Made by a program: the position numbers and the translations under genes. From Octopus vulgaris (lineage: Eukaryota), in the NCBI GenBank assembly GCA_951406725.2, contig OX597841.1:11904001-11968000 (forward strand): DNA of 64,000 nucleotides, read 5' to 3'. Positions 7,003 to 64,000 of this stretch are shown here, in pieces. Below the pieces are notes generated by a model. It saw only the letters and a program-made list of their open reading frames with translations. It was not told the origin of the DNA and did not search any database. How positions within the stretch are numbered: the first letter of the stretch is position 1; the number at the start of each line of letters is the position of its first letter.

Positions 7003-7574
7003 ATTTTTTTTTTCTCTAGTTTCAGCTCAGAGCCGCGGCCATGCTGATGCACCGCCGTCCTATGCTACACTGTTATTACGACGAACCTCGTCTACTATGT
7101 GGCACTTGGTGAAGAATTATATACAATGGGCTTCTTTCAGTTTCCGTCTACCAAATCTACTCACAAGGCATTGGTTGGCCCGAGGCTATAGTAGAAGACA
7201 CTTGCCCAAGGTGCCATGCAGTGGTACTGAACCCAAAACCATGTGGTTGGTAAACAAGCTACTTACCACACAGCAACTCCTGCACCAACTAAATTTATTT
7301 GTTTTGTTTTCAGCAACTTTCAGTGTTTGCAATGTTGTGTTCAATACGCAATATTATGCAGTATATTATAAAAAATAGGGTCCATGGTACAGGAAAACGG
7401 TGCCTAATCTGGAGAAATAAAGGTCAGAATCAGAATCAGGACCCAGAAACAAGTCTTACATAAATTGTATTTTTTTTTGAACCCGAAATTTGTTGCACAG
7501 TGTATATAGAAGAGAGAGAAAAGAGGGGCCAGAGAGGGAATGGCATAACAATAAAAAGTACCAGCTGTACTCAC

Positions 7575-7643
7575 GGGTTCTCCAATCATGTCAAAAGCAT
7601 GGTGAAGTATCTTGAACGCTTCTTCAGCACCAGTTTGGGAATT
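7575..7643 (-). CDS. DNAJC14: DNAJC14 coding exon 6 (NSQTGAEEAFKILHHAFDMIGEP), J-domain helix III
   Basis: cttgtag| and |gtgagt, 69 nt, phase 0/0; AEEAFK motif directly after HPDK. Confidence 0.93.
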
Positions 7644-7840: not shown

Positions 7841-9080
7841 TAAGCAGATCAGGCCGAAAATGTCACTAGAAGCTGGGATCACCAAGCATAGATTGGCATA
7901 TTTCGGTCATATTATGAGGAGAAAATCCCTGGAGAAGGACATCATGCTCGGAATGGTCAGTGGCAAGAGAGGAAGAGGCACACCAAAGGAGAAGTTCTTA
8001 AGCAGATCAGGCCGAAAATGTTGCTAGAAGCTAGGATCACCAAGCATAGATTGGCATATTACGGTCATATTATGAGGAGAAAATCCCTGGAGAAGGACAT
8101 CATGCTTGGAATGGCCAATGGCAACAGAGGAAGAGGCCGACCAATGGAGAAGTTCTTAAGCAGATCAGGCCGAAAATGTCGCTAGAAGCTAGGATCACCA
8201 AGCATAGATTGGCATATTTCGGTTATATTATGAGGAGAAAATCCCTGGAGAAGGACATCATGCTTGGAATGGCCAATGGCAACAGAGGAAGAGGCCGACC
8301 AATGGAGAAGTTCTTAAGCAGATCAGGCCGAAAATGTCGCTAGAAGCTAGGATCACCAAGCATAGATTGGCATATTTCGGTCATATTATGAGGAGAAAAT
8401 CCCTGGAGAAGGACATCATGCTTGGAATGGCCAATGGCAACAGAGGAAGAGGCCGACCAATGGAGAAGTTCTTAAGCAGATCAGGCCGAAAATGTCGCTA
8501 GAAGCTAGGATCACCAAGCATAGATTGGAATATTACGGTTATATTATGAGGAGAAAATCCCTGGAGAAGGACATCATGCTTGGAATGGCCAATGGCAACA
8601 GAGGAAGAGGCCGACCAATGGAGAAGTTCTTAAGCAGATCAGGCCGAAAATGTCGCTAGAAGCTAGGATCACCAAGCATAGATTGGCATATTTCGGTTAT
8701 ATTATGAGGAGAAAATCCCTGGAGAAGGACATCATGCTTGGAATGGCCAATGGCAACAGAGGAAGAGGCCGACCAATGGAGAAGTTCTTAAGCAGATCAG
8801 GCCGAAAATGTCGCTAGAAGCTAGGATCACCAAGCATAGATTGGCATATTTCGGTCATATTATGCGGAGAAAATCCCTGGAGAAGGACATCATGCTCGGA
8901 GTGGTCAATGGCAAGAGAAGAAGAGACCAACCAAGAACCCGCTGGCTTGACACCATCAAGAGTGATACCGGAATGGACATAGGCAATCTGAAAGAAGCGG
9001 TCCAGGATAGAACTGACTGGAGGACACTGATCCATTGAGTGACCGAGAGTCGACTTCGACTGAGCAGATAGATAGATAGA
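7841..9080 (+). mobile_element. RTE (BovB-like) LINE 3' end with a 158-bp segment tandemly amplified
   Basis: Unit starts at 7841, 7999, 8157, 8315, 8473, 8631 and 8789; encodes RLAYFGHIMRRKSLEKDIMLG..GKRRR..PRTRWLDTIK; ends gagtcgacttcgactgagc plus (AGAT)n. Confidence 0.9.
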
Positions 9081-10069
9081 TATATGTATGTATACATATA
9101 CATTTATAGAGCAGCTTCTAACACAAAATTTGAATAATATATAAATCCTGAAAAGGGGTTGGAAATGTTTTGGAGCCCTAGGTTCATAAGACCAGTTTCC
9201 CAGTCTTTGAGGCGTATGTATTCCCATCCTGGATGGGACGATAGTCCATCTTGCAGGATTACTCATTTGTGATGACTGGGTGTAGTGCAACAATGTGAAA
9301 TGGAGTCACCCAGCTCAGGAACCGAAACTATATATATATATATATACATGTAATTATATATATATATGTAATTATATATAAATATAATATTATATATTAG
9401 AAACAAGAGTAAATATTCAAATAAATATTTATATAGATATTAATAATAGTAGTAGTAAATAATAATAATAATGATGATAATAATAATACTATCGGTCACT
9501 TTTTGCCGAACCGCTAAGTGACGGGGACATAAACACACCAGCATCGGTTGTCAAGCAATGCTAGGGGGACAAACACATAGACACAAACACATACATATAT
9601 ATATATATACATATATACGACAGGCTTCTTTCAGTTTCCATCTACCAAATCCACTCACAAGGCATTGGTCGGCCCGGGGCTATAGCAGAAGACACTTGCC
9701 CAAGATGCCACGCAGTGGGACTGAACCCGGAACCATGTGGTTGGTTAGCAAGCTACTTACCACTCCTATATATTAAATTAGAGATAAAACCACTATTAGG
9801 CAAATCAAACAGTGAAAAACATAAACCAAAACATAGAAATAAAATTACTTAATATAATATACAAAATAAAAATATATTTTAAATTTTAAATTTTGAATAT
9901 TATATTTTATTTTGTATATTATATTAATTAATTTTATTTCTATGTTTTGGTTTATGTTTTTCACTGTTTGATTTGCCTAATAGTGGTTTTATCTCTAATT
10001 TAATATATATATATATATTTATATAGTAAAATTAGATTTAATCCTAAATCTAATTTTTCCCTATTATTA

Positions 10070-10101
<32 letters not shown>

Positions 10102-10515
10102 AATATTAGTGAAAAATTAGGTTTAGGATTAAATCTAATTTTACAATATAAGTATATATATATATATATATATATATATGCATACATAGGCTTGCCTGTG
10201 TGGTAGGAAGTTTGATTTCCAACCACATGGCTTGGGGTTCAGCCTGTATCCAAGACTCTGTCCAAATTGCACTGGCATCATAAAGTCCCAATTTCGATGG
10301 AATTGTAACAAAAATCAAGCAACAACATTTCTCCAAAACCTGAAGTGAAAAAGCTTCGAGAAAAATCCTTTTGCAGCAAGCAACCAACAACAACAATAGC
10401 CACATCTCCCTCAAATCATGACAACATGGGGATACTGTAAAGCAGTGATATGCAATGACTGTTAGATAGATGGGATGGTCATGGATGGAGCGTGAAGGTT
10501 AAAAGTTCTCCTTAC

Positions 10516-10600
10516 CTTGTCAGGATGAACAAGTATTACTTGCTTCTTGTAATATTTCTTTATGTCTTCATCTGTGCTCTGGCATTTCAAACCTAAAATA
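10516..10600 (-). CDS. DNAJC14: DNAJC14 coding exon 5 (SILGLKCQSTDEDIKKYYKKQVILVHPDK), J-domain with HPD motif
   Basis: atccag| and |gtaagg, 85 nt, phase 2/0; canonical HPD. Confidence 0.95.
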
Positions 10601-10819
10601 CTGGATACAAACACAGACCAATATATATATATATATATATATACACAACTTTAATGACACTTTGGAAATTAGTAGGAAGTAATATAATGTACTATTGACT
10701 ATGCATATTTGCATCTAGGTACTAATGTGTGTATGTTTATTATCACAATATTAAGTTGAAAACTGAAACATTGAATGTGGAACATATATATGTTTACTAA
10801 TTTATATTATTTATTTACA

Positions 10820-12504: not shown

Positions 12505-12722
12505 CGTGTATGTTTGTGTGTCTGTATTTGTCCCCCTAGCATTGCTTGACAACCGATGCTGGTGTGTTTACGTCCCCGTTACTTAGCGGTTCGGCAAAAG
12601 AGACCGATACAATAAGTACTGGGCTTACAAAAGAATAAGTCCCAGGGTCGAGTTGCTTGATTAAAGGCGGTGCTCCAGCATGGCCACACTCAAATGACTG
12701 AAACAAGTAAAAGAGTAAAGAG
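12300..12722 (+). mobile_element. Full-length tRNA-derived SINE family A
   Basis: A box (c/t)ggctgtgtgg, B box ggttcagtccc, CORE-like ccttgggcaagtg, internal (TA)/(TG) tract, LINE-like tail ggcggtgctccagcatggcc..gactgaaac, (AGTAAAAG) tail repeats. Confidence 0.9.
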
Positions 12723-12760
12723 TATATATAGAATGTGTCAGAAAGAGTGAGAGACAATAC

Positions 12761-12812
12761 CTGTAAGGGTCTTTCCCACGACAATTCAGCAACCTTTGCA
12801 TAGCTTCTTCAC
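12761..12812 (-). CDS. DNAJC14: DNAJC14 coding exon 4 (GEEAMQRLLNCRGKDPY)
   Basis: tttccag| and |gtattg, 52 nt, phase 1/2; GEEAMxRLLxCxGKDPYSILG is the typical DNAJC14 J-domain entry in invertebrates. Confidence 0.93.
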
Positions 12813-13953
12813 CTGGAAATAAAAGAGAGAATGTGAGGGAGTTTAAGACAAACCTTTGGTACAGTCATACGAACAGGGCTTGTCCCTAATTCTTCTGGGT
12901 GTCGACCCCAGATCAAGCATCTGCCCATCCTTACACCTGTTTCTCATCCCTAACATCCACGGGACTTTTCAGCTGCTGTTACCACCTGAGAGCTAACCCC
13001 CCCCCCCCCAACACACATTGCATCCTGCCTCCTTCTGGTTACCTCCATCCCTCCTTCCTTACCCACATTAGGATCCCTACCAAAACACTCTTCCTACAAC
13101 TCACCTCCCTCATTTTCCATCATTCTCAATGCCCCCTTCCTTCCCTTCCCCCCCTTATGCCCCTACCCGCATCTCCCTCCTCCTACACCTTGCACATTAT
13201 TCTGGTTTCTCCTCCTCCCGCAACCACTCCGCTATCTCACCTCACCCCCTCTCCATTTCCTTCAATCGAACCCCTCCCACCCCCATCTTTTTACCACCTG
13301 TTACACCCACCCACCCGCATCACATCTTATGAAAGCATTCCCTCTCTCCTCCCATGACCCACTCTCCGTATCCTTCTTGTACCTTGACTGTTTGCTTCGG
13401 CACCCCATCACATCTTTTCTTGTATCTTTTCATCTGCTCCTGCCCATCCCTATATATAAAAAGGGGCTAGCCATGTATTTCCTCTATAACATCTCTTGTC
13501 CCTCTATCTTACTTCAGCCTTTCAACATTCAGCATAAACCCTAACCCCTCTCAAATACTTGCCATTTAGCCTAGGCAAGATTTAGTGGTTTGCCCCATCT
13601 GAAAGGACTAGACTTTCAACAGCAGATGAGATGGACCCATCCATTACAACGACAACAACAACAACATGGAAAATGGGAGTAGAACGAGGAGGATGGTGAT
13701 GGTGTGAGGGTCAGATCTAATTGTTTGCCTCACTTCATCATCACCTTCCATGCTGGCATGGGTGGGACGATTTGACAGGAGCTGGCCAGGCGGAAGCCTG
13801 CATCAGACTTCTCTGTCTGTTTTGGCAGGGATTTTACAGCTGGACGCCTTACCTAACACCAATCACTCAGCAGAGTGGTCAATACATTTCATATCGATCT
13901 AAGTTAGGCTCTACTACTACAACAACAACAACAACAACAGCAACAACACTCAC

Positions 13954-19937: not shown

Positions 19938-20019
<82 letters not shown>

Positions 20020-20234
20020 GTATAAAAACATGAACAGGTACAATGAGAGAGAGAAAGATAGACAGACAGACAGAGAGAGCATGTAGAGAAAATGAGAAAA
20101 GACGAAAAACAAAAGATGCCAGAAAGTTGAGTGGTGGGCATGGATGGAAGGGAGTTTAATGTTGGAGAGACGTGAGAAGGGGTGAGGGAGGGAGGGAGGG
20201 AGGGGATGAAAGAGATATAAAGTGTAAAACTTAC

Positions 20235-23200
20235 CGAAAGATGGATAATCAATGCCAAAGAGTAGTCGAGAATGTTGGTGGTGATGATGATGCAGATGAT
20301 GATGATGGTGGTGGTGTCGGTACGTGCCCTTGTTCCTTGACCTTCCGCCGGACGTCGACTGCGATGATCTGGCACCAAACATATAGGAAGAGTAGTCATT
20401 CGAACCATTCCCACCATCACCACCAGCACCACCACTACCACCACCGCCGTCGTCGTTGTTGTTGTTGTTGTTACTGTAGCTACTACTACCACCACTGTTG
20501 GTTCTACTCCCACCTCCGCTGCTGCCTCCGGTTCCTCCTCTACCACCACCACCAGCACCACCACCACCGCCGCCGCTGCTGCTGCCGCCGCCGCCGCCAC
20601 CGCTACCAGCGCCGCCGCCGCCACCACCACCACTACTACCAGCGCCGCCGCCGTTGCCGTTGTCTCCGCCACCAGCGCCATCATCCAGCCTTCCTGATTT
20701 ACCTCCGCTCCGACTATTATTGCTGTAACTGCCACCACCACCACCACCGCCGCCGCCACCACTACTACAGCTACTCACGTTCGGGTGGCTATGTTTACCA
20801 TGGACAACATTATCATTATTATTCTTGCAGTGAGTATTACCATTGTGATCATTATGATTATTATTATTAGCATTGTTATTACGATTATTATTTCTATTAT
20901 TATTATAATTATTAGTGTTATTATTATTATTAATATTATTGCTACTGTTGTTTGCGTAAGCGGGATGCTGGTTAGGCAGCGCATCCGTGGAACAGGCAGT
21001 GGTGTTGGTGCACTTCTTGAAGTGATGCAGGTCGTTATTGATGTACCCCAGGGACTGCCTGTGCTGCCACCTACCCTGGGACCGCGACGGCATTCCGTTG
21101 TTTAGTATGTTCGGCGACGGAGTGCTCCGCCGCCTCATGCCGCCCTCACCACCACCACCACCATCAGCCAACGGAGACTCCGGCAGCTGTTTCCGTTGGC
21201 GACGGTGGCTGCTCTGTCCATCTTCCGTGCATTTGGAGCCATCCAGGCTACACTTGGGTGGATGCTGCTGCTGTTGCTGGGGGAGGTGCCACGACCCAGC
21301 AGCAAAGGGTGGGGAAGCAGGAGAGGGATTAGTAAGGGGACTGTGGTGTGACGATGACGACGACGATGCTGGTGATGATGACGCTGGCGTTGATACTGCA
21401 GCTGAGGAAGATGGTGATGAAGAAAAGAAAGCAGGAGATAGTGGAGGAGGTGAAGGAGGAGGAGGAACGGCTGCTGTAGTGAAGTTCTTCTTCTTCTTCC
21501 TGCTGCTGCGAGAGGATTTGTTGCTTGGCTTACCCTGGCAACAACTGTCTGACCTCTCGTACAAAGGCGACGCCCTATTCTCTCGCTCTACATCGCCGCC
21601 GCCGCCAACACTGGTATCATAACTGTCACCGCATACTGTGGTTCTATCTTTTCTGGTGGTGGATGCTGCTGTTGTTGTTGTTGTTAAGCCCATTGCATTC
21701 TCATACGCGGGGACATTCGCAAAGGAAGCAGATTTTCTCCCACTGTCAATACTGCCGTGAGCCCTGCTATCGACGGGGTTCGCAGAGAACATTGCAGTCG
21801 GATTTGGTTGCGAAGAAAGGGAAACACCTAAGCCCGATGTCGACAGGGGTACACTAAAACTGGATGTTGAGAGGCACGCACCGATGCCAGGCACAGACGG
21901 GGGGCTCATACCAAAACCAGGCGCTGAGAGGGTTGCATGGAGGCCCGATGCAGAAAGGCTCGACGTAGAGGGAGAGAGTGATGCTGAGCTGAAGACAGGT
22001 GTTGCTTTCTGTCTCTCTTTGGCCAGCTTTGCTACCTGTGAATAGGTGCGTCTCGACGAACACACCTCTTCTTTGTTGCCGCAGTTACTACCCTGCTCTG
22101 ATGTCGGTGATGACAGCGACAGTGGGGGCAGAGGGGGTTTTGGTAAATTTGATGCTGGTGTTGGTGTTGCTGCTGCTGCTACTGATGGTGGTGATGGAGA
22201 TGGTACAGCACTATCAACAAGGAGCTCAGAGTAGACAAATTCATTGTTGTAAGTCCAAGAGTGGACACGAAGAGGTGGTGAAACCCCTGCAAAATCTGTT
22301 GACCTTCCATGTGGTTGACACTCTTCCTCCCGCATTCGTTGTTGTTGCTGCTGCTGTTCCCACAATTGCTGCTGCTGTTGTTGTTGATAATGCTGCTGTA
22401 GCACAGCATGGTCTTGTTGCTGCTGTTGCTGTTGCTGAAGAAACCGCAAATGCTGTTGTTGCTGCTGCTGTTGTTGTTGCTGTTGTTGTTGTAGTAACAG
22501 CTGGTGCAGTACGTACGCACGACTGGCTTCGGCAGACTTCCTCTCGCTGCCTATTGCACCCTTGGTGGACGACGACATGCAGTAAAGTGGGAGAGCGTCC
22601 CCGCAGTGAGGGGGCAGCGGCACCGGGGCTGAAAGGGACGGTGGCGGCGGCAGCGGTAACCGCGACACTGACAAAGGTAACGTCGGAGAGGAAGACGCAG
22701 GCAGAGTCGGAGGGATCACGACGGAGACGCCTCCAAGCTGTTCCCCACCATGACGTGGCTTAGAGCCAGGGACACTGCCAGTCATAGTGGTGGTGGTCAT
22801 GGTATGGAGGGGGGGAAGTTGAGCAAAGGCTTGTTGCATCTCTGCAATAGAAATGAATTCCTCGTCCTTGAAACCGTTCTGAAGGCAACAACTATCTCCA
22901 GCCTCGCTGCCAACAATGGCCCCACTACTAACGGGTTGCTCCAGCATGGACAAACTGCAACGAAGAGGACAACCCAAACCAGGTTGATGGTTCGTCATTT
23001 GGGCTTTGGTTAAGGTTTCACTGGAGACCAAGTTGAGGACAGGGTTGGCGGTGAGGCCGCAGATAGTCAGCAGGGGCGCCGCAGATGAAGCTGCTATTGT
23101 TGTCATGGCGACAGTCGTCAAGGAAGCTTCAGCCACTGTTGACGTCAACAAGGCATTTGTTGTTGTCGCTGTTGTTGTCAACGAGGCACTAATCGCCCTC

Positions 23201-23583
23201 GTCATGACAGATGAAGATGAGTGCGAAGGGACGGGAGTGTTTGCATCCGGGGAGCCTGCATTGGTGGGGTAACTGTGACAGCTGTATGTGGGTTGACCCA
23301 AGGGGAACAGAGACATAGTGCCACCAACACTTCTGAAACCAGCCCAGTTGATGTTGCTGTTGCTGTTGTTGCTATTACTACTAGTACTGCTGCTACTGGT
23401 CAAACTCTCGCTCTTGTCCGTACTCAGATCCCCACCACCGTCACCACCACCACCACCCCTGTCCAGGCAGTAGGTGTACTCCTCACGCAGGTGAGTATTC
23501 ACTGTGTACTCTTTGCCCGTTGCGCAATGTCCTCCAACACCGAACCTGAAGCCAGCATCCCTGTTGTTCACTGTGTCGACCAT
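20235..23583 (-). CDS. DNAJC14: DNAJC14 first coding exon (1116 codons, low-complexity N-terminus)
   Basis: ATG in perfect Kozak gccaccATGG with an upstream in-frame TGA; exon acceptor ttcctcag| at 23660; donor TTCG|gtaagt at 20235; phase joins the downstream J-domain exons. Confidence 0.88.
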
Positions 23584-23699
23584 GGTGGCAGGATTACTGG
23601 AGTTTCATGGCCGGATGATGAAGAAAATAAAAACGGCCTGGCAAAATGTCTTCAATAAACCTGAGGAAAAAAAGAAAAAAATTCATTATAATACACATA

Positions 23700-23859
23700 C
23701 GCAGGAGTGGCTGTGTGGTAAGTAGCTTGTTTACGAACCACATGGTTCCGGGTTCAGTCCCACTGCGTGGCACCTTGGGTAAGTGTCTTCCACTATAGCC
23801 TCGGGCCGACCAAAGCCTTGTGAGTGGATTTGGTAGACGGAAACTGAAAGAAGCTCATC

Positions 23860-23910
<51 letters not shown>

Positions 23911-24318
23911 TGTAGGAGTGACTGTGTGGTAAGTAGCTTGCTAACCAACCACATGGTTCCGGGTTCAGTCCCACTGCGTGGCACCTCGGGCAAGTGTCTT
24001 CTACTATAGCCTCGGGCCGACCAAAGCCTTGTGAGTGCATTTGGTAGACGGAAACTGAAAGAAGCCCATCGTATATATATAAATATATATATATATGTAT
24101 GTATGTGCGTGTATGTTTATGTGTCTGTGTTTGTCCCCCTAGCATTGTTTGACAACCGATGCTGCTGTGTTTACGTCCCCGTAACTTAGCGGTTCGGCAA
24201 AAGAGACCAATAGAATAAGTACTGGGCTTACAAAGAATAAGTCCCGGGGTCGAGTTGCTCGATTAAAGGTGGTGCACCAGCATGGCCGCAGTCAAAATGA
24301 CTGAAACAAGTAAAAAGA
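23700..24318 (+). mobile_element. SINE family A with duplicated 5' half
   Basis: Head plus core at 23700-23862 and again at 23908-24070, separated by (TA)n; an opposite-strand copy follows at 24470-24845. Confidence 0.85.
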
Positions 24319-25290
24319 GCTAAAAAAACAGAGAATATATTAGAAGGATATCCAGCGTTGTCCTGAAAACGAAGCACTCATCTGTTAGCCAGTGATTTGA
24401 ACTCAAATCTTTGAGGCTCTGCATAAGATTACTATTTCAGACACATTATATTATTTATGACATTTGTTATTTTACTTTACTCTTTTACTTGTTTCAGTCA
24501 TGTGACTGTGGCCATGCTGGAGCACCGCCTTTAGTCGACCCCAGGACTTATTCTTTGTAAACCTAGTACTTATTTTATCAGGCTCTTTTTTGCCGAACCG
24601 CTAAGTTATGGGGACGTAAACACACCAGATGTTGGGGGAACAAACACAGACACACAAACATGCACATACATATATATATACGACAGGCTTCTTTCAGTTT
24701 CCGTCTACCAAATACACTCACAAGGCTTTGGTCGGCCCGAGGCTATAGTAGAAGACACTTGCCCAAGGTGCCACGCAGTGGGACTGAACCCGGAACCATG
24801 TGGTAGGTAAGCAAGCTACTTACCACACAGCCACTCCTACGCCTATGAACAATTTATTTACTTTTCAATAACTGCCTTCCTAAAAGGGAAGGCAAACATT
24901 ATATAAATATATATATGTATATAATGTAAAGTATAGAAGCCATCTCAATATGGCTAACCACAAAGGAGGGGGATTTACTGTAGCTTTCTAGCCCCAGGAG
25001 ATCATCGTCTCCAGCTGGCTTTAGACACACTTTCTGTGCCGAAAGTGTGTCTAAAGCCAGCTGGAGACGATGATCTCCTGGGGCTAAAAAGCTACAGTAA
25101 CACCCCACCAACACTTTGTGGTTAGCCATATTGAGATGGCTTTTATACTTTACATTGTCGAGTGGTTACTGTTTACATCTCGTTCTGAGATTTAATAATG
25201 CTTACAGTCAGTTTTTCGAAATCAGTGGCAGACGTCACTAGAAAAACTCTTATATATTTGCAGGGAGGCCTTCTCTTTCATCGTGACCTG

Positions 25291-25348
25291 GTGATTACCG
25301 CCCGTTGATAAGAGACAATAATCTCGAAACCGGTCCGGTCCGTATCAC
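25291..25348 (+). ncRNA. Type I hammerhead ribozyme, U3-A8 variant (copy 1)
   Basis: gtga-t-tac-cgc-ccg TTGATAA gaga-caataa-tctc GAAAC cg GTC cgg-tcc-gta-tcac; bulged stem I, palindromic ACCGGT stem III; predicted cut after 25335. Confidence 0.8.
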
Positions 25349-25648
25349 TCAGGCTTACAAGGAAGGGATGGCCTCCTTTTGCAAATACTTTAAGGGCACA
25401 GAAAGTGTCTAAAGCCAGCTGGAGACGATGATCTCCTGGGGCTAAAAAGCTACAGTAACACCCCAGCAACACTTTGTGGTTAGCCATATTGAGATGGCTT
25501 TTCTACTTTACGTTGTCGAGTGGTTACTGTTTACATCTCGTTCTGAGATTTAATAATGCTTACAGTCAGTTTTTCGAAATCAGTGGCAGACGTCACTAGA
25601 AAAACTCTTATATATTTGCAGGGAGGCCTTCTCTTTCATCGTGACCTG

Positions 25649-25711
25649 GTGATTACCGCCCGTTGATAAGAGACAATAATCTCGAAACCGGTCCGGTCCG
25701 GTCCGTATCAC
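25649..25711 (+). ncRNA. Type I hammerhead ribozyme, U3-A8 variant (copy 2)
   Basis: Identical core, with an extra ccggt in the stem I bulge; predicted cut after 25693. Confidence 0.78.
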
Positions 25712-26620
25712 TCAGGCTTACAAGGAAGGGATGGCCTCCCTTTGCAAATACTTTAAGGGCACAGAAAGTGTCTAAAGCCAGCTGGAGACGATGATCTCCT
25801 GGGGCTAAAAAGCTACAGTAACACCCCCCCCCACACACTTTGTGGTTAGCCATATTGAGATGGCTTTTCTACTTTACATTGTCGAGCGGTTACTGTTTAC
25901 ATCTCGTTCTGAGATTTAATAATGCTATATTTCTCTTTTATCTCTTTTCTCCATTACTTGTTTCAGTCATTTGACTGCGGCCATGCTGGAGCACCGCCTT
26001 TAGTCGAGCAAATCGACCCTGGGACTTATTCTTTTTGTAAGCCCAGTACTTATTCTATCGGTCTCTTTTGCCGAACGGGGACGTAAACACACCAGCATCA
26101 GTTGTCAAGCAATGCTAGGGGGACAAACACAGACATATACAGACACATATATATATATATACATATATATGACAGGCTTCTTTCAGTTGGACAGTCCAGC
26201 ATGGGTTGGACTGTTTGACCGGGGTCTGGGAAGCCAGAAGGCTGCACCAGGCTCCAGTCTGATCGGGCAATGTTTCTACGGCTGGATGCCCTTCCTAATG
26301 CCAACCACTCCGTGAGTGTAGTGGGTGCTTTTTACGTGCACACCGGCACGGAAGCCACTCAAGGTGGCGCTGGCATCGGCCACATACGGATGGTGCTTTT
26401 TAGGTGCCACTGGCATAGGTGCCAGGGTAGGGTGGAAATGGCCACGATCGGTTGATGCTTTTTACATGCCACCGGCACGGAAACCAGTCAAGGTGGCGCT
26501 GGCATCGGCCACGTATGGATGCTGCTTTTTAGGTGCCAGGGTAGGCTGGCAACGGTCACGAACGGTTGGTGCTTTTTACGTGCCATATTATATATATAGT
26601 GTATATATTGTATATATATA

Positions 26621-27459: not shown

Positions 27460-27832
27460 ATACTCTCTTTTACTTGTTTCAGTCATTTGACTGCGGCCAT
27501 GCTGGAGCACCGCCTTTAGTCGAGCAACTCGACCCCGGGACTTATTCTTTGTAAGCCCAGTACTTATTCTATCGGTCTCTTTTGCCGAACCGCTAAGTAA
27601 CGGGGACGTAAACACACCAGCATCAGTTGTCAAGCAATGCTAGGGGGACAAACACACATACATATATACGACAGGCTTCTTTCAGTTTCCCTCTACCAAA
27701 TCCACTCACAAGGCATTGGTCGGCCCAGGGCTATAGCAGAAGACACTTGCCCAAGATGCCACGCAGTGGGACTGAACCCGGAACCATGTGGTTGGTTAGC
27801 AAGCTACTTACCACACAGCCACTCCTGCGCCT
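27460..27832 (-). mobile_element. Full-length SINE family A
   Basis: Matches 12300-12722. Confidence 0.9.
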
Positions 27833-54113: not shown

Positions 54114-54196
54114 TTGGTATTCTTTTGCTTTGCTTAACTGTACAACGCCTTCTTCTATGCTGATCTCAGCACTTACAACGTTTGCTTCAATGCTGT
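54114..54196 (-). CDS. STX7: Syntaxin-7/12 SNARE-motif C-terminal exon (DSIEANVVSAEISIEEGVVQLSKAKEYQ)
   Basis: ttgtag| and |gtaagt, 83 nt, phase 1/0; DSIEANV..QL..A..YQ is the STX7/STX12 Qa-SNARE signature; upstream exons lie outside the window. Confidence 0.93.
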
Positions 54197-54309: not shown

Positions 54310-56090
54310 GTCACACATGCCCACCCCTCATGAGTTCCCTTATATACACACAAACACGCTTCCACACATCATGAGTATTCTTATGTACACACACACATGC
54401 CCACTCCGCCTCATACACACCCACGCATGTTTCCACACATGCCCACCCCTCATGAGTATTCTTATGTACACACACACACACACACATGCCCACTCTGCCT
54501 CATACACACCCACACACATACTTCCACACACACCCACGCATGTTTCCACACATGCCCACCCCTCATGAGTCCTCTTATGTACACACACACACACACACAC
54601 ATGCCCACTCTGCCTCATACACACCCACACACATACTTCCACACACACCCACGCATGTTTCCACACATGCCCACCCCTCATGAGTCCTCTTATATATACA
54701 CACACACACACACACACACGCCAACTCTGCCTCATACACAGCCACACACGCCCAGCCTTCATTAGTTCTCATATACACACACACACACACACGCATGTTT
54801 CCACATATGCCCACCCCTCATGAGTCCTCTTATATACACACACACACATGCCCGGTCTGCCTCATACACAGCCACACACATACTTCCACACATGTCCAGC
54901 CTTCATTAGTTCTCATATACACACACACGCATGTTTCCACACATGCCCACCCCTCATGAGTCGTCTTATACACACACACACACACATGCCCACTGCCTCA
55001 TACACACCCACACACATACTTCCACACACACGCCCAGCCTTCATTAGTTCTCATATACACATACGTTTCCACACATGCCCACCCCTCATGAGTCCGCTTA
55101 TACACACACACACATGCCCACTGCCTCATACACACCCACACACATACTTCCACACACACGCCCAACCTTCATTAGTTCTCATATACACACACACACACGC
55201 GCATGTTTCCACACATGCCCACCCCTCATGAGTCCTCTTATATACACACACACACACATGCCCACTGCCTCATACACACCCACACACATACTTCCACACA
55301 CACCCAGCCTTCATTAGTTCTCATACACACACACACAGGCATGTTTCCACACATGCCCACCCCTCATGAGTCCTCTTATATACACACACATACATGCCCA
55401 CTCTGCCTCATACACACCCACACACATACTTCCACACACACCCAGCCTTCATTAGCTCTCATATACACACACACGCATGTTTCCTCACATGCCCACCCCT
55501 CATGAGTCCGCTTATATACACACACACACACATGCCCACTGCCTCATACACACCCACACACATACTTCCACACACACGCCCAACCTTCATTAGTTCTCAT
55601 ATACACACACACACGCGCATGTTTCCACACATGCCCACCCCTCATGAGTCCTCTTATACACACACACACACACACATGCCCACTCCGCCTCATACACACC
55701 CACACACATACTTCCACACACACGCCCAACCTTCATTAGTTCTCATATACACACACACACGCATGTTTCCACACATGCCCACCCCTCATGAGTCCGCTTA
55801 TATACACACACACACATGCTCACTGCCTCATACACACCCACACACATACTTCCACACACACGCCCAGCCTTCATTAGTTCTCATACACACACACACAGGC
55901 ATGTTTCCACACATGCCCACCCCTCATGAGTCCTCTTATATACACACACACACATGCCCACTCCGCCTCATACACACCCATACACATACTTCCACACACA
56001 CGCCCAGCCTCCATTAGTTCTCATACACACACACACACACACACGCGCATGTTTCCACACATGCCCACCCCTCATGAGTCCCCTTATACA
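54310..56090. repeat. Minisatellite, ~120-bp unit with internal (CA)n
   Basis: gcatgtttccacacatgcccacccctcatgagtcc..cttcattagttctcat recurring. Confidence 0.92.
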
Positions 56091-56163: not shown

Positions 56164-56211
<48 letters not shown>

Positions 56212-56365
56212 ACAAGACCCCCTGCCCCGCATCCACACATGGCTTACCTATTCCTTCTCCTTGTTCATGCACCATGACTCCAAGTTCTTTAAATATTTGG
56301 TTCACATCTCGAATATCACTCTAACAACAGAAAAAAGAAGAAAAAAAAACAAAAGTAAATAAATA

Positions 56366-59300
56366 GGCGCAGGAGTGGCTGTGTGGTAAGTAGCTTGCTA
56401 ACCAACCACATGGTTCTGGGTTCAGTCCCAGGCGCAGGAGTGGCTGTGTGGTAAGTAGCTTGCTAACCAACCACATGGTTCTGGGTTCAGTCCCAGGCGC
56501 AGGAGTGGCTGTGTGGTAAGTAGCTTGCTAACCAACCACATGGTTCTGGGTTCAGTCCCAGGTGCAGGAGTGGCTGTGTGGTAAGTAGCTTGCTAACCAA
56601 CCACATGGTTCTGGGTTCAGTCCCAGGCGCAGGAGTGGCTGTGTGGTAAGTAGCTTGCTAACCAACCACATGGATCCGGGTTCAGTCCCAGGCGCAGGAG
56701 TGGCTGTGTGGTAAGTAGCTTGCTAACCAACCACATGGTTCTGGGTTCAGTCCCAGGCGCAGGAGTGGCTGTGTGGTAAGTAGCTTGCTAACCAACCACA
56801 TGGTTCCGGGTTCAGTCCCAGGTGCAGGAGTGGCTGTGTGGTAAGTAGCTTGCTAACCAACCACATGGTTCTGGGTTCAGTCCCAGGCGCAGGAATGGCT
56901 GTGTGGTAAGTAGCTTGCTAACCAACCACATGGTTCTGGGTTCAGTCCCAGGCGCAGGAGTGGCTGTGTGGTAAGTAGCTTGCTAACCAACCACATGGTT
57001 CTGGGTTCAGTCCCAGGCGCAGGAGTGGCTGTGTGGTAAGTAGCTTGCTAACCAACCACATGGTTCTGGGTTCAGTCCCAGGCGCAGGAGTGGCTGTGTG
57101 GTAAGTAGCTTGCTAACCAACCACATGGTTCTGGGTTCAGTCCCAGGCGCAGGAGTGGCTGTGTGGTAAGTAGCTTGCTAACCAACCACATGGTTCTGGG
57201 TTCAGTCCCAGGCGCAGGAGTGGCTGTGTGGTAAGTAGCTTGCTAACCAACCACATGGTTCCGGGTTCAGTCCCAGGCGCAGGAGTGGCTGTGTGGTAAG
57301 TAGCTTGCTAACCAACCACATGGTTCTGGGTTCAGTCCCAGGCGCAGGAGTGGCTGTGTGGTAAGTAGCTTGCTAACCAACCACATGGTTCTGGGTTCAG
57401 TCCCAGGCGCAGGAGTGGCTGTGTGGTAAGTAGCTTGCTAACCAACCACATGGTTCTGGGTTCAGTCCCAGTGGCAGGAGTGGCTGTGTGGTAAGTAGCT
57501 TGCTTACCAACCACATGGTTCTGGGTTCAGTCCCAGGCGCAGGAGTGGCTGTGTGGTAAGTAGCTTGCTAACCAACCACATGGTTCCGGGTTCAGTCCCA
57601 GGCGCAGGAGTGGCTGTGTGGTAAGTAGCTTGCTAACCAACCACATGGTTCCGGGTTCAGTCCCAGGCGCAGGAGTGGCTGTGTGGTAAGTAGCTTGCTA
57701 ACCAACCACATGGTTCTGGGTTCAGTCCCAGGCGCAGGAGTGGCTGTGTGGTAAGTAGCTTGCTAACCAACCACATGGTTCTGGGTTCAGTCCCAGGCGC
57801 AGGAGTGGCTGTGTGGTAAGTAGCTTGCTAACCAACCACATGGTTCTGGGTTCAGTCCCAGGCGCAGGAGTGGCTGTGTGGTAAGTAGCTTGCTAACCAA
57901 CCACATGGTTCTGGGTTCAGTCCCAGGTGCAGGAGTGGCTGTGTGGTAAGTAGCTTGCTAACCAACCACATGGTTCCGGGTTCAGTCCCAGGCGCAGGAG
58001 TGGCTGTGTGGTAAGTAGCTTGCTAACCAACCACATGGTTCTGGGTTCAGTCCCAGGCGCAGGAGTGGCTGTGTGGTAAGTAGCTTGCTAACCAACCACA
58101 TGGTTCCGGGTTCAGTCCCAGGTGCAGGAGTGGCTGTGTGGTAAGTAGCTTGCTAACCAACCACATGGTTCTGGGTTCAGTCCCAGGCGCAGGAATGGCT
58201 GTGTGGTAAGTAGCTTGCTAACCAACCACATGGTTCTGGGTTCAGTCCCAGGCGCAGGAGTGGCTGTGTGGTAAGTAGCTTGCTAACCAACCACATGGTT
58301 CTGGGTTCAGTCCCAGGCGCAGGAGTGGCTGTGTGGTAAGTAGCTTGCTAACCAACCACATGGTTCTGGGTTCAGTCCCAGGCGCAGGAGTGGCTGTGTG
58401 GTAAGTAGCTTGCTAACCAACCACATGGTTCTGGGTTCAGTCCCAGGCGCAGGAGTGGCTGTGTGGTAAGTAGCTTGCTAACCAACCACATGGTTCTGGG
58501 TTCAGTCCCAGGCGCAGGAGTGGCTGTGTGGTAAGTAGCTTGCTAACCAACCACATGGTTCCGGGTTCAGTCCCAGGCGCAGGAGTGGCTGTGTGGTAAG
58601 TAGCTTGCTAACCAACCACATGGTTCTGGGTTCAGTCCCAGGCGCAGGAGTGGCTGTGTGGTAAGTAGCTTGCTAACCAACCACATGGTTCTGGGTTCAG
58701 TCCCAGGCGCAGGAGTGGCTGTGTGGTAAGTAGCTTGCTAACCAACCACATGGTTCTGGGTTCAGTCCCAGTGGCAGGAGTGGCTGTGTGGTAAGTAGCT
58801 TGCTTACCAACCACATGGTTCCGGGTTCAGTCCCAGGCGCAGGAGTGGCTGTGTGGTAAGTAGCTTGCTAACCAACCACATGGTTCCGGGTTCAGTCCCA
58901 GGCGCAGGAGTGGCTGTGTGGTAAGTAGCTTGCTAACCAACCACATGGTTCTGGGTTCAGTCCCAGGCGCAGGAGTGGCTGTGTGGTAAGTAGCTTGCTA
59001 ACCAACCACATGGTTCTGGGTTCAGTCCCAGGCGCAGGAGTGGCTGTGTGGTAAGTAGCTTGCTTACCAACCACATGGTTCTGGGCTCAGTCCCAGGCGC
59101 AGGAGTGGCTGTGTGGTAAGTAGCTTGCTTACCAACCACATGGTTCTGGGTTCAGTCCCAGGCGCAGGAGTGGCTGTGTGGTAAGTAGCTTGCTAACCAA
59201 CCACATGGTTCTGGGTTCAGTCCCAGGCGCAGGAGTGGCTGTGTGGTAAGTAGCTTGCTAACCAACCACATGGTTCTGGGTTCAGTCCCAGGCGCAGGAG

Positions 59301-62300
59301 TGGCTGTGTGGTAAGTAGCTTGCTAACCAACCACATGGTTCCGGGTTCAGTCCCAGGCGCAGGAGTGGCTGTGTGGTAAGTAGCTTGCTAACCAACCACA
59401 TGGTTCTGGGTTCAGTCCCAGGCGCAGGAGTGGCTGTGTGGTAAGTAGCTTGCTAACCAACCACATGGTTCTGGGTTCAGTCCCAGGCGCAGGAGTGGCT
59501 GTGTGGTAAGTAGCTTGCTAACCAACCACATGGTTCCGGGTTCAGTCCCAGGCGCAGGAGTGGCTGTGTGGTAAGTAGCTTGCTAACCAACCACATGGTT
59601 CCGGGTTCAGTCCCAGGCGCAGGAGTGGCTGTGTGGTAAGTAGCTTGCTAACCAACCACATGGTTCCGGGTTCAGTCCCAGGCGCAGGAGTGGCTGTGTG
59701 GTAAGTAGCTTGCTAACCAACCACATGGTTCCGGGTTCAGTCCCAGGCGCAGGAGTGGCTGTGTGGTAAGTAGCTTGCTAACCAACCACATGGTTCTGGG
59801 TTCAGTCCCAGGCGCAGGAGTGGCTGTGTGGTAAGTAGCTTGCTAACCAACCACATGGTTCTGGGTTCAGTCCCAGGCGCAGGAGTGGCTGTGTGGTAAG
59901 TAGCTTGCTAACCAACCACATGGTTCTGGGTTCAGTCCCAGTGGCAGGAGTGGCTGTGTGGTAAGTAGCTTGCTTACCAACCACATGGTTCTGGGTTCAG
60001 TCCCAGGCGCAGGAGTGGCTGTGTGGTAAGTAGCTTGCTAACCAACCACATGGTTCCGGGTTCAGTCCCAGGCGCAGGAGTGGCTGTGTGGTAAGTAGCT
60101 TGCTAACCAACCACATGGTTCCGGGTTCAGTCCCAGGCGCAGGAGTGGCTGTGTGGTAAGTAGCTTGCTAACCAACCACATGGTTCTGGGTTCAGTCCCA
60201 GGCGCAGGAGTGGCTGTGTGGTAAGTAGCTTGCTAACCAACCACATGGTTCTGGGTTCAGTCCCAGGCGCAGGAGTGGCTGTGTGGTAAGTAGCTTGCTT
60301 ACCAACCACATGGTTCTGGGTTCAGTCCCAGGCGCAGGAGTGGCTGTGTGGTAAGTAGCTTGCTAACCAACCACATGGTTCTGGGTTCAGTCCCAGGCGC
60401 AGGAGTGGCTGTGTGGTAAGTAGCTTGCTAACCAACCACATGGTTCCGGGTTCAGTCCCAGGCGCAGGAGTGGCTGTGTGGTAAGTAGCTTGCTAACCAA
60501 CCACATGGTTCTGGGTTCAGTCCCAGGCGCAGGAGTGGCTGTGTGGTAAGTAGCTTGCTAACCAACCACATGGTTCCGGGTTCAGTCCCAGGCGCAGGAG
60601 TGGCTGTGTGGTAAGTAGCTTGCTAACCAACCACATGGTTCTGGGTTCAGTCCCAGGCGCAGGAGTGGCTGTGTGGTAAGTAGCTTGCTAACCAACCACA
60701 TGGTTCCGGGTTCAGTCCCAGGCGCAGGAGTGGCTGTGTGGTAAGTAGCTTGCTAACCAACCACATGGTTCCGGGTTCAGTCCCAGGCGCAGGAGTGGCT
60801 GTGTGGTAAGTAGCTTGCTAACCAACCACATGGTTCTGGGTTCAGTCCCAGGCGCAGGAGTGGCTGTGTGGTAAGTAGCTTGCTAACCAACCACATGGTT
60901 CCGGGTTCAGTCCCAGGCGCAGGAGTGGCTGTGTGGTAAGTAGCTTGCTAACCAACCACATGGTTCTGGGTTCAGTCCCAGGCGCAGGAGTGGCTGTGTG
61001 GTAAGTAGCTTGCTTACCAACCACATGGTTCTGGGTTCAGTCCCAGGCGCAGGAGTGGCTGTGTGGTAAGTAGCTTGCTAACCAACCACATGGTTCTGGG
61101 TTCAGTCCCAGGCGCAGGAGTGGCTGTGTGGTAAGTAGCTTGCTAACCAACCACATGGTTCCGGGTTCAGTCCCAGGCGCAGGAGTGGCTGTGTGGTAAG
61201 TAGCTTGCTAACCAACCACATGGTTCTGGGTTCAGTCCCAGGCGCAGGAGTGGCTGTGTGGTAAGTAGCTTGCTAACCAACCACATGGTTCCGGGTTCAG
61301 TCCCAGGCGCAGGAGTGGCTGTGTGGTAAGTAGCTTGCTAACCAACCACATGGTTCTGGGTTCAGTCCCAGGCGCAGGAGTGGCTGTGTGGTAAGTAGCT
61401 TGCTAACCAACCACATGGTTCCGGGTTCAGTCCCAGGCGCAGGAGTGGCTGTGTGGTAAGTAGCTTGCTAACCAACCACATGGTTCCGGGTTCAGTCCCA
61501 GGCGCAGGAGTGGCTGTGTGGTAAGTAGCTTGCTAACCAACCACATGGTTCTGGGTTCAGTCCCAGGCGCAGGAGTGGCTGTGTGGTAAGTAGCTTGCTA
61601 ACCAACCACATGGTTCCGGGTTCAGTCCCAGGCGCAGGAGTGGCTGTGTGGTAAGTAGCTTGCTAACCAACCACATGGTTCTGGGTTCAGTCCCAGGCGC
61701 AGGAGTGGCTGTGTGGTAAGTAGCTTGCTAACCAACCACATGGTTCTGGGTTCAGTCCCAGGCGCAGGAGTGGCTGTGTGGTAAGTAGCTTGCTAACCAA
61801 CCACATGGTTCTGGGTTCAGTCCCAGTGGCAGGAGTGGCTGTGTGGTAAGTAGCTTGCTTACCAACCACATGGTTCTGGGTTCAGTCCCAGGCGCAGGAG
61901 TGGCTGTGTGGTAAGTAGCTTGCTAACCAACCACATGGTTCCGGGTTCAGTCCCAGGCGCAGGAGTGGCTGTGTGGTAAGTAGCTTGCTAACCAACCACA
62001 TGGTTCCGGGTTCAGTCCCAGGCGCAGGAGTGGCTGTGTGGTAAGTAGCTTGCTAACCAACCACATGGTTCTGGGTTCAGTCCCAGGCGCAGGAGTGGCT
62101 GTGTGGTAAGTAGCTTGCTAACCAACCACATGGTTCTGGGTTCAGTCCCAGGCGCAGGAGTGGCTGTGTGGTAAGTAGCTTGCTTACCAACCACATGGTT
62201 CTGGGTTCAGTCCCAGGCGCAGGAGTGGCTGTGTGGTAAGTAGCTTGCTAACCAACCACATGGTTCTGGGTTCAGTCCCAGGCGCAGGAGTGGCTGTGTG

Positions 62301-64000
62301 GTAAGTAGCTTGCTAACCAACCACATGGTTCCGGGTTCAGTCCCAGGCGCAGGAGTGGCTGTGTGGTAAGTAGCTTGCTAACCAACCACATGGTTCTGGG
62401 TTCAGTCCCAGGCGCAGGAGTGGCTGTGTGGTAAGTAGCTTGCTAACCAACCACATGGTTCCGGGTTCAGTCCCAGGCGCAGGAGTGGCTGTGTGGTAAG
62501 TAGCTTGCTAACCAACCACATGGTTCCGGGTTCAGTCCCAGGCGCAGGAGTGGCTGTGTGGTAAGTAGCTTGCTAACCAACCACATGGTTCCGGGTTCAG
62601 TCCCAGGCGCAGGAGTGGCTGTGTGGTAAGTAGCTTGCTAACCAACCACATGGTTCTGGGTTCAGTCCCAGGCGCAGGAGTGGCTGTGTGGTAAGTAGCT
62701 TGCTAACCAACCACATGGTTCTGGGTTCAGTCCCAGGCGCAGGAGTGGCTGTGTGGTAAGTAGCTTGCTAACCAACCACATGGTTCCGGGTTCAGTCCCA
62801 GGCGCAGGAGTGGCTGTGTGGTAAGTAGCTTGCTAACCAACCACATGGTTCCGGGTTCAGTCCCAGGCGCAGGAGTGGCTGTGTGGTAAGTAGCTTGCTA
62901 ACCAACCACATGGTTCTGGGTTCAGTCCCAGGCGCAGGAGTGGCTGTGTGGTAAGTAGCTTGCTAACCAACCACATGGTTCTGGGTTCAGTCCCAGGCGC
63001 AGGAGTGGCTGTGTGGTAAGTAGCTTGCTTACCAACCACATGGTTCTGGGTTCAGTCCCAGGCGCAGGAGTGGCTGTGTGGTAAGTAGCTTGCTAACCAA
63101 CCACATGGTTCCGGGTTCAGTCCCAGGCGCAGGAGTGGCTGTGTGGTAAGTAGCTTGCTAACCAACCACATGGTTCCGGGTTCAGTCCCAGGCGCAGGAG
63201 TGGCTGTGTGGTAAGTAGCTTGCTAACCAACCACATGGTTCTGGGTTCAGTCCCAGGCGCAGGAGTGGCTGTGTGGTAAGTAGCTTGCTAACCAACCACA
63301 TGGTTCTGGGTTCAGTCCCAGGCGCAGGAGTGGCTGTGTGGTAAGTAGCTTGCTTACCAACCACATGGTTCTGGGTTCAGTCCCAGGCGCAGGAGTGGCT
63401 GTGTGGTAAGTAGCTTGCTAACCAACCACATGGTTCTGGGTTCAGTCCCAGGCGCAGGAGTGGCTGTGTGGTAAGTAGCTTGCTAACCAACCACATGGTT
63501 CCGGGTTCAGTCCCAGGCGCAGGAGTGGCTGTGTGGTAAGTAGCTTGCTAACCAACCACATGGTTCTGGGTTCAGTCCCAGGCGCAGGAGTGGCTGTGTG
63601 GTAAGTAGCTTGCTAACCAACCACATGGTTCCGGGTTCAGTCCCAGGCGCAGGAGTGGCTGTGTGGTAAGTAGCTTGCTAACCAACCACATGGTTCCGGG
63701 TTCAGTCCCAGGCGCAGGAGTGGCTGTGTGGTAAGTAGCTTGCTAACCAACCACATGGTTCCGGGTTCAGTCCCAGGCGCAGGAGTGGCTGTGTGGTAAG
63801 TAGCTTGCTAACCAACCACATGGTTCTGGGTTCAGTCCCAGGCGCAGGAGTGGCTGTGTGGTAAGTAGCTTGCTAACCAACCACATGGTTCTGGGTTCAG
63901 TCCCAGGCGCAGGAGTGGCTGTGTGGTAAGTAGCTTGCTAACCAACCACATGGTTCTGGGTTCAGTCCCAGGCGCAGGAGTGGCTGTGTGGTAAGTAGCT
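56366..64000 (+). repeat. 65-bp tandem satellite derived from the tRNA-like head of SINE family A (~117 copies, runs off the window)
   Basis: Unit ggcgcaggagtggctgtgtggtaagtagcttgctaaccaaccacatggttc(t/c)gggttcagtccca equals nt 1-65 of SINE A. Confidence 0.97.

Follow-up and report, generated by a model that had tools for sequence, protein, structure and literature searches.

The end of the 64,000-nucleotide window analyzed here, the whole stretch of Octopus vulgaris DNA on contig OX597841.1 from position 11,904,001 to 11,968,000, is occupied by a tandem array of a 65-bp monomer on the plus strand (56365..64000). The monomer corresponds to the first 65 bases, referred to here as the head, of a short interspersed element (SINE) that is abundant elsewhere in the window. 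The array lies within a syntaxin-7/12-like gene that is encoded on the opposite strand. The explanation considered likely is that a SINE copy in the intron seeded the array, that the array grew by unequal exchange, and that it probably has no selected function.

The array comprises 117 full units and 31 nucleotides of another. A count of 117 is a minimum, since the array crosses the window edge at position 64000. Tandem Repeats Finder (TRF) calls the array with a period of 65, 117.5 copies, 98% matches, and 0% indels. When cut in register, the units can be sorted into 10 haplotypes that vary at seven positions (3, 4, 11, 36, 50, 53, and 57), and the monomers are 99.1% identical to their consensus. 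The start is ambiguous by one nucleotide (56365 or 56366) because the parent SINE also has an A at nucleotide 66. The first monomer (56365..56429, plus strand) keeps the natural 5’ end of the SINE beside an AT-rich flank and is the likely founder SINE insertion.

When the monomer was used as a BLAST query, many dispersed copies were found elsewhere in the window. The head alignment was built from the 14 best ungapped copies, and six more diverged or shorter matches were omitted from it. Thirteen of the 14 aligned heads continue into an ACTG..TGGCA strand, and one is cut at nucleotide 46. The copy at 9781 (minus strand) is missing its first 18 nucleotides, yet it also continues past the head. 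A body of approximately 170 nucleotides is common to the dispersed copies, most of which have a (TA)n-rich tail, and the AGG 5’ end of the monomer is present in eight of the 14. The nearest dispersed head differs from the monomer at one of 65 bases. Because the dispersed heads continue into a body and tail, share the AGG 5’ end in eight cases, and differ by as little as this one base, the array unit is identified as nucleotides 1-65 of an abundant dispersed SINE-like element that is at least 172 nucleotides long. A representative full copy is located at 27661..27832 (minus strand), with one difference from the monomer in nucleotides 1-65. The 14 heads outside the array fall in about 56 kb, or about one per 4 kb. 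The parent is thus an element of high copy number with a shared 5’ end, this body and tail, and no coding frame.

Pairwise difference is 1.4% within the array and 6.6% among seven full dispersed heads. A preliminary description of this DNA had proposed a young, homogeneous array of more than 117 monomers, cut from a SINE head so that the unit stops just before the 3’ acceptor-stem strand. The unit count, the identity to consensus, the continuation of 13 of 14 dispersed heads, and the lower divergence within the array all bear this out. ARAGORN returned 0 tRNA genes, and Rfam gave no tRNA match at E values up to 10, in both the full dispersed head and the start of the array. In the predicted fold of the full head (z = −0.38), the first bases pair with the strand that is absent from the monomer, and a T-arm-like hairpin is formed. 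The head may plausibly derive from a tRNA. The parent presumably resembles the octopus OR1/OR2 CORE-SINEs. These two families have been named for octopus in the available text of earlier reports (PMC4824008, PMC4758252). The predicted fold of the monomer has a z of −0.14 and that of the dimer −2.08. A special RNA structure of the monomer was rejected, as the dimer value is expected for a repeated unit with a self-complementary stretch.

Two further features of the dispersed copies were observed. One copy ends at head nucleotide 46 (51181-51226, minus strand) and two begin at nucleotide 44 (30764, plus strand; 46273, minus strand), which marks a possibly recurrent breakpoint in the SINE. Full SINE copies also occur in tandem, as a dimer and a 2.6-mer, and in one place two of them stand back to back with a TA run between them (23700-24104, 45769-46273, and 43866-44216).

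The host gene, a syntaxin, is a housekeeping trafficking gene. Three of its exons were identified on the minus strand, with canonical splice sites and lengths that join in frame. The exon nearest the array (56248..56320, 73 nucleotides) encodes the first half of the SNARE motif and matches syntaxin 7 (phmmer E 9.8e-07) and syntaxin 13 (E 1.7e-05). The next exon (54114..54196, 83 nucleotides) encodes the second half of the motif; its best matches are the same two proteins, but they are weak, and its Pfam SNARE match (E 1e-05) is below the curated cut-off. The last coding exon (50341..50448) carries a basic patch, a transmembrane segment, and the stop codon, with a Pfam SNARE match (E 0.0013) that is also below the curated cut-off. 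Between the nearest exon and the array lie 44 intronic bases (56321..56364, minus strand), which form the 3’ end of the intron with an intact polypyrimidine tract and an AG acceptor. The nearest upstream AG is 58 nucleotides away. There is little doubt that the array is intronic, given the acceptor site and the N-terminal exons, which are absent from the window and thus lie outside it. The placement antisense within a syntaxin intron, as previously described, is therefore upheld.

A consensus-like 5’ splice site (TG/GTAAGT) is present on the plus strand of each monomer, at 56384-56391 and every 65 bp thereafter. It is silent for syntaxin and would be relevant only to a plus-strand RNA polymerase II transcript.

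The last syntaxin intron contains a 46-nucleotide SINE head fragment (51181..51226, minus strand) that is equal to monomer nucleotides 1-46 and opposite in orientation to the array. The antisense units could pair with this sense head, or with SINE RNAs, and so cause skipping or back-splicing of the SNARE exons or adenosine-to-inosine editing. The duplex would be a perfect 46 bp with a predicted energy of −97.6 kcal/mol, and it would bracket in-frame exons totalling 156 nucleotides. The partner, however, is a short one at a distance of more than 5 kb, and a single unexpanded head would pair equally well. An effect of this kind is considered extremely improbable.

Formation of the array can be described in three steps. 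In the first, for which there is partial direct evidence, a SINE with 36A, the less common subtype, would have inserted 44 bases upstream of the syntaxin exon, opposite to the gene. In the second, another intact SINE 5’ end would have been placed directly behind nucleotide 65/66 of the first. Retrotransposition, either by insertion of a second copy or by a template jump of the reverse transcriptase, is modestly favored over random DNA duplication as the source of this second end, because the first base of the unit coincides with the 5’ terminus of the SINE, a point that a random duplication would be unlikely to hit, and the junction shows only 1 nucleotide of homology. For the third step the pattern is observed, and the process would be growth of the two 65-bp direct repeats by multi-unit duplications with homogenization by unequal exchange. 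Microhomology-driven duplication was rejected, as the sequences at nucleotide 65/66 share only 1 nucleotide.

Public contigs from four runs bear on the first two steps. Runs X1 and X2 are from organism A, and run X5 is from organism B. Contigs that pass from the unique flank into the head by 16-18 nucleotides are present in three of the four runs (X1, X2, and X5), under two organism labels. In X4 the exon is not covered by any contig, which does not mean that the founder head is absent there, and one of the three positive runs might be the source sample. With these provisos, the founder SINE insertion is shared between samples. The flank contigs stop where the repeat starts and are compatible with one SINE or with an array at that point. 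Loose contig ends cluster at 56359-56365, and those behind position 56430 carry the SINE continuation (the ACTG..TGGCA strand) in all four runs. Joints in which one head runs into another at head nucleotides 27-31 are likewise present in all four runs. SINE-into-SINE structures do, therefore, form in this genome, which fits the second step.

The joint after head nucleotide 30, to a new head start, was scored against 56210-56460 and has depths of 2513, 390, 105, and 150 in X1, X2, X4, and X5, the counts for three of the runs being incomplete. Depths of the unique flank in the same order are 31, 14, 0, and 42. SINEs may have inserted into one another at many loci to give this joint, or it may belong to a further variable number tandem repeat (VNTR), derived from the head with a 33-bp unit and variable in copy number.

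The distribution of variants along the array records the third step. Rare haplotypes reappear in register at distances of 18, 20, 29, and 47 units, and a 20-unit block is repeated near the left end. The best information-weighted haplotype repeat scores 16.8, against a maximum of 13.7 in shuffled arrays (0 of 1000 shuffles reach it). No exact repeat is longer than 974 bp, and the block copies are imperfect. Nested, imperfect block duplications point to successive unequal exchanges rather than to block copying by the assembler. A regular higher-order repeat was rejected, the four offsets being local blocks. Rolling-circle reverse transcription as the source of the whole array was rejected as well, as variants are shared through nested blocks.

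These patterns also bear on whether the assembled length is inflated, with only a few copies being real. The homogeneity is very high, and the copy number is that of the assembled sequence. However, an assembler would be expected to copy blocks exactly or to collapse them, and the array instead has 10 haplotypes, no indels, and rare variants common to nested imperfect duplications. This argues against an artefact, and inflation from a few copies is judged highly improbable.

The 36T variant occurs in 11 of the 117 units. It is the majority state of the dispersed copies (7 of 14 in the window; 67-74% of contig depth). A new mutation would match this common state with a probability of only about 0.025, which suggests that 36T was imported from a second parent copy or by gene conversion and also fits the second step. 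At two other variable sites, 4 and 53, C and T alternate within a CpG, a change that methylation would lead one to expect. Gene bodies and satellites of octopus are reported to be CpG-methylated (PMC9476566, available text).

The array does not stand alone as an expansion. Tandem arrays of five kinds fill 77% of the 16.6 kb between 47381 and 64000. In addition to the 65-bp array, the units are 29 bp (86 copies), 271 bp (1.8 copies), 62 bp (7.5 copies), and about 138 bp (10 copies). Those with units of 29, 62, and about 138 bp lie in or beside the syntaxin gene at 47381-49941, 53416-53883, and 54415-56088. The 62-bp unit belongs to another dispersed repeat with internal tandem units, of which the window contains four further loci. 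If this region tends to expand any sequence in it, the 65-bp array is explained with no need for a promoter function. Neighboring unrelated units without promoter boxes have expanded too. The promoter-like boxes described below are likely to be passengers.

The array could alternatively be one locus of a genome-wide 65-bp satellite family, as in snakes, that spread after a single origin. Long and uniform SINE-derived arrays of squamates are usually present at several loci, as far as the available text of PMC10702118 goes. The same source describes an isolated locus of more than 1200 units in Sceloporus occidentalis. In the present case the first unit keeps the original 5’ junction of a SINE whose insertion is common to several samples, which fits an origin in place, and neither TRF nor BLAST of the monomer found a second array of the 65-bp unit within the 64-kb window. 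Membership in a multi-locus family is considered unlikely.

Each monomer contains two motifs that resemble the internal promoter of RNA polymerase III (Pol III) genes. They were compared with the consensus sequences TRGYNNARNNG (A box) and RGTTCRANTCC (B box), taken from the available text of PMC7954030. The A-box-like motif spans monomer nucleotides 12-22 (56376..56386 in the first monomer, plus strand) and has one mismatch, a T at the conserved A. It is present in 117 of 117 units, each with this mismatch. Monomer nucleotides 1-11 score equally well, so the A-box match is weak. The B-box-like motif spans nucleotides 55-65 (56419..56429, plus strand) and has two mismatches, a G at the conserved A and a C in place of a T. 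The sequence GGTTCAGTCCC is found in 116 of the 117 units, and the remaining unit has three mismatches. Of the dispersed heads, 13 extend across the B box, and each of them has the G at the conserved A, which is a family trait. That an A box and a B-box-like motif are kept in every monomer, as claimed earlier, is thus confirmed for imperfect matches. Depletion of mutations within the boxes was not detectable in a test of low power (1 of 7 events inside, p = 0.25).

Several points weigh against the explanation of the array as a product of neutral expansion. The A and B boxes are 32 bp apart, within the natural range of 31-93 bp given in the available text of PMC11724288. The unit would be almost exactly a minimal type-2 promoter, ending on the last base of the B box. 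A human TFIIIC structure shows six B-box contacts that are base-specific (PMC11811891, available text). With numbering transferred from human, five of the six contact positions are identical in every one of the 117 units; at the remaining position an A stands in place of a G, a purine that the consensus allows. The conserved A that is replaced by G in this family is not among the six. As to origin, the frequent head-to-head joints in the public contigs lie at nucleotides 27-31 and not at 65/66, and insertion would thus have to have taken place away from the usual site. How the array began would be visible at its far end, which is beyond the window. The neutrality of the array, finally, is argued from its context.

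An alternative is a dense TFIIIC platform, in which TFIIIC would bind the B boxes without Pol III, in the manner of extra TFIIIC (ETC) sites, and would act as a local insulator or chromatin organizer in the syntaxin gene. The contact bases of the B box are kept in 117 of 117 units. The yeast tauB-DNA model spans 40 bp, which fits units spaced at 65 bp, and binding requires no more than the B box (PMC11724288, available text). ETC sites show barrier and insulator activity (PMC12409998, available text). On the other side, the B box is mismatched twice, once at a conserved A, and the same motif is present in every dispersed head of the window. No depletion of box mutations was detectable, and the neighboring box-free arrays have expanded too. 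Highly expressed octopus genes and satellites also tend to CpG methylation (PMC9476566, available text). A platform with such a role is considered unlikely. On the main explanation, too, TFIIIC may bind some of the B boxes, with a probability well short of even.

A bolder form of this idea is that the array is a polymerized minimal Pol III promoter, a TFIIIC platform phased at 65 bp whose length would dial the strength of a chromatin boundary or the output of syntaxin. Its seed would have been a processed 66-nucleotide SINE-head RNA ending in CCA, joined by a reverse transcriptase jump. This is judged quite unlikely. If it were true, with the array both occupied and variable in length, it would represent a regulatory VNTR of a new type. 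The more likely description is that of a young and local minisatellite derived from a SINE, one of many expansions in a repeat-prone region.

The distance from each B box to the next A box is just 11 bp. The yeast TFIIIB-TFIIIC complex was assembled on a sequence from −44 to +76 (PMC11724288, available text). Adjacent units would not be simultaneous promoters, because the 11-bp gap is small against this span. Full initiation complexes on every unit appear sterically impossible, while binding to the B box alone would be possible on each. The 117 promoter modules of the preliminary description would not, then, be expected to be active all together. Its suggestion of a TFIIIC sink is implausible on different grounds. 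The 117 units are few beside the dispersed heads, which occur at one per 4 kb in the window and match 59,062-98,296 public contigs per run at 90% identity or more, although contigs are not copies.

Pol III could also read through an array that contains no terminator and produce a long antisense RNA that collides or pairs with the syntaxin pre-mRNA. The sequence TTTT is absent from both strands of the 7.6-kb array, the spacing of the boxes is tRNA-like, and the parent family has amplified with the same boxes. However, the B box of the preceding unit lies at −11 to −1 of each unit, inside the span of −44 to +76 (PMC11724288), so at most alternate units would fire, and transcription would head away from the exon. 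The lack of a terminator is also the default of the family: TTTT is absent from nucleotides 1-160 of seven of seven full dispersed SINE copies, and 86% of shuffled monomers lack it. The missing terminator therefore carries no information, and it was rejected as a selected feature, being inherited from the parent SINE. The earlier statement that the plus strand has no run of four T residues is correct and extends to the minus strand; the significance attached to it is not retained. Read-through with such an effect is considered very unlikely.

Other features of the window lie farther from the array. Two sub-threshold Rfam matches to a hammerhead ribozyme (HH9) were found at 25287-25358 and 25645-25721 (plus strand), with E values of 4.5e-04 and 1.3e-05. 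Both fall within a direct repeat (about 360 bp, at roughly 25150-25925) that resembles a retrozyme or a Penelope-type repeat. A second minus-strand gene (19945-23604, 12664-12864, 10465-10650, and 7407-7643) has a low-complexity frame of 1220 codons and, after it, small exons, of which one matches Pfam DnaJ (E 4.3e-07). This gene is presumed to be DNAJC14-like. An array of a 158-bp unit (6.9 copies, 96% matches) is located at 7841-8934, and its frame presumably resembles the end of a LINE (long interspersed element) reverse-transcriptase frame.

No report of a SINE-head satellite in octopus was found in the literature searched, of which coverage was partial. Among comparable systems, the tRNA-related tandem repeats of amphibians are PolIII/TAN of newt, OAX/satellite 1 of Xenopus, Rana/polIII, and Hy/polIII (PMC10702118, PMC9659126, available text). 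These have a tRNA-like internal promoter in each unit, comparable to the promoter-like motifs of the octopus array, and PolIII/TAN is transcribed in vitro. Their units are 200-360 nucleotides or longer and have no confirmed parent SINE in those sources, whereas the octopus unit is a bare 65-nucleotide promoter region with a parent that is abundant in the window. In tandems of Drosophila transposable elements, insertion of a second copy by or into the first creates a direct repeat that can be expanded by unequal exchange (PMC5932611, available text), as proposed here. The Drosophila non-LTR (long terminal repeat) junctions described there are tail-to-head or tail-to-internal, whereas the octopus junction is internal-to-head and the unit consists of the head only. 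Human and mouse minisatellites derived from Alu and B1 are likewise expansions of a SINE fragment at a single locus, and the available text of PMC9659126 does not describe their units as complete modules of A and B box. ETC sites and the array have in common B-box motifs to which TFIIIC could bind with no Pol III present. ETC sites are single sites defined by measured occupancy (PMC12409998, available text).

The closest likeness is to the squamate SINE-derived satellites sSat1-3, for which the statements here follow the available text of PMC10702118. The genomes of 56 squamates contributed to their description, which gives a unit length of 67-290 nucleotides and up to more than 1200 copies. 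Their uniformity rises with length, subvariants alternate, and some units cover the tRNA-related head. In the octopus array, too, only a fragment of the SINE is repeated head to tail, its unit is close to the 67 nucleotides of snake sSat3, and it falls in the class of hundreds of units with locus subvariants that alternate. It has 117 full units, where the squamate satellites are defined by at least four middle monomers, a dispersed parent SINE longer than the unit, and greater uniformity than the dispersed copies. In the squamate satellites a terminal unit extends to a SINE terminus; here the leading unit keeps the 5’ end, and the trailing unit is outside the window. The differences are an unrelated SINE, another phylum, and an intronic rather than subtelomeric location. 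The octopus unit (nucleotides 1-65) contains both boxes, whereas snake sSat3 (nucleotides 42-108) keeps only box B, and the squamate units that cover the head (sSat3Ppi2 and sSat2Gja1) are 139-151 nucleotides long. Identity is 99% here and 94% at the cobra locus of greatest length. Whether such satellites exist outside squamates was not settled by the reptile study, and the octopus array is a clear case in a cephalopod. Its bare A-box and B-box unit offers a natural experiment on TFIIIC and Pol III at closely packed sites, and its parent element, founder insertion, and duplication history are all visible.

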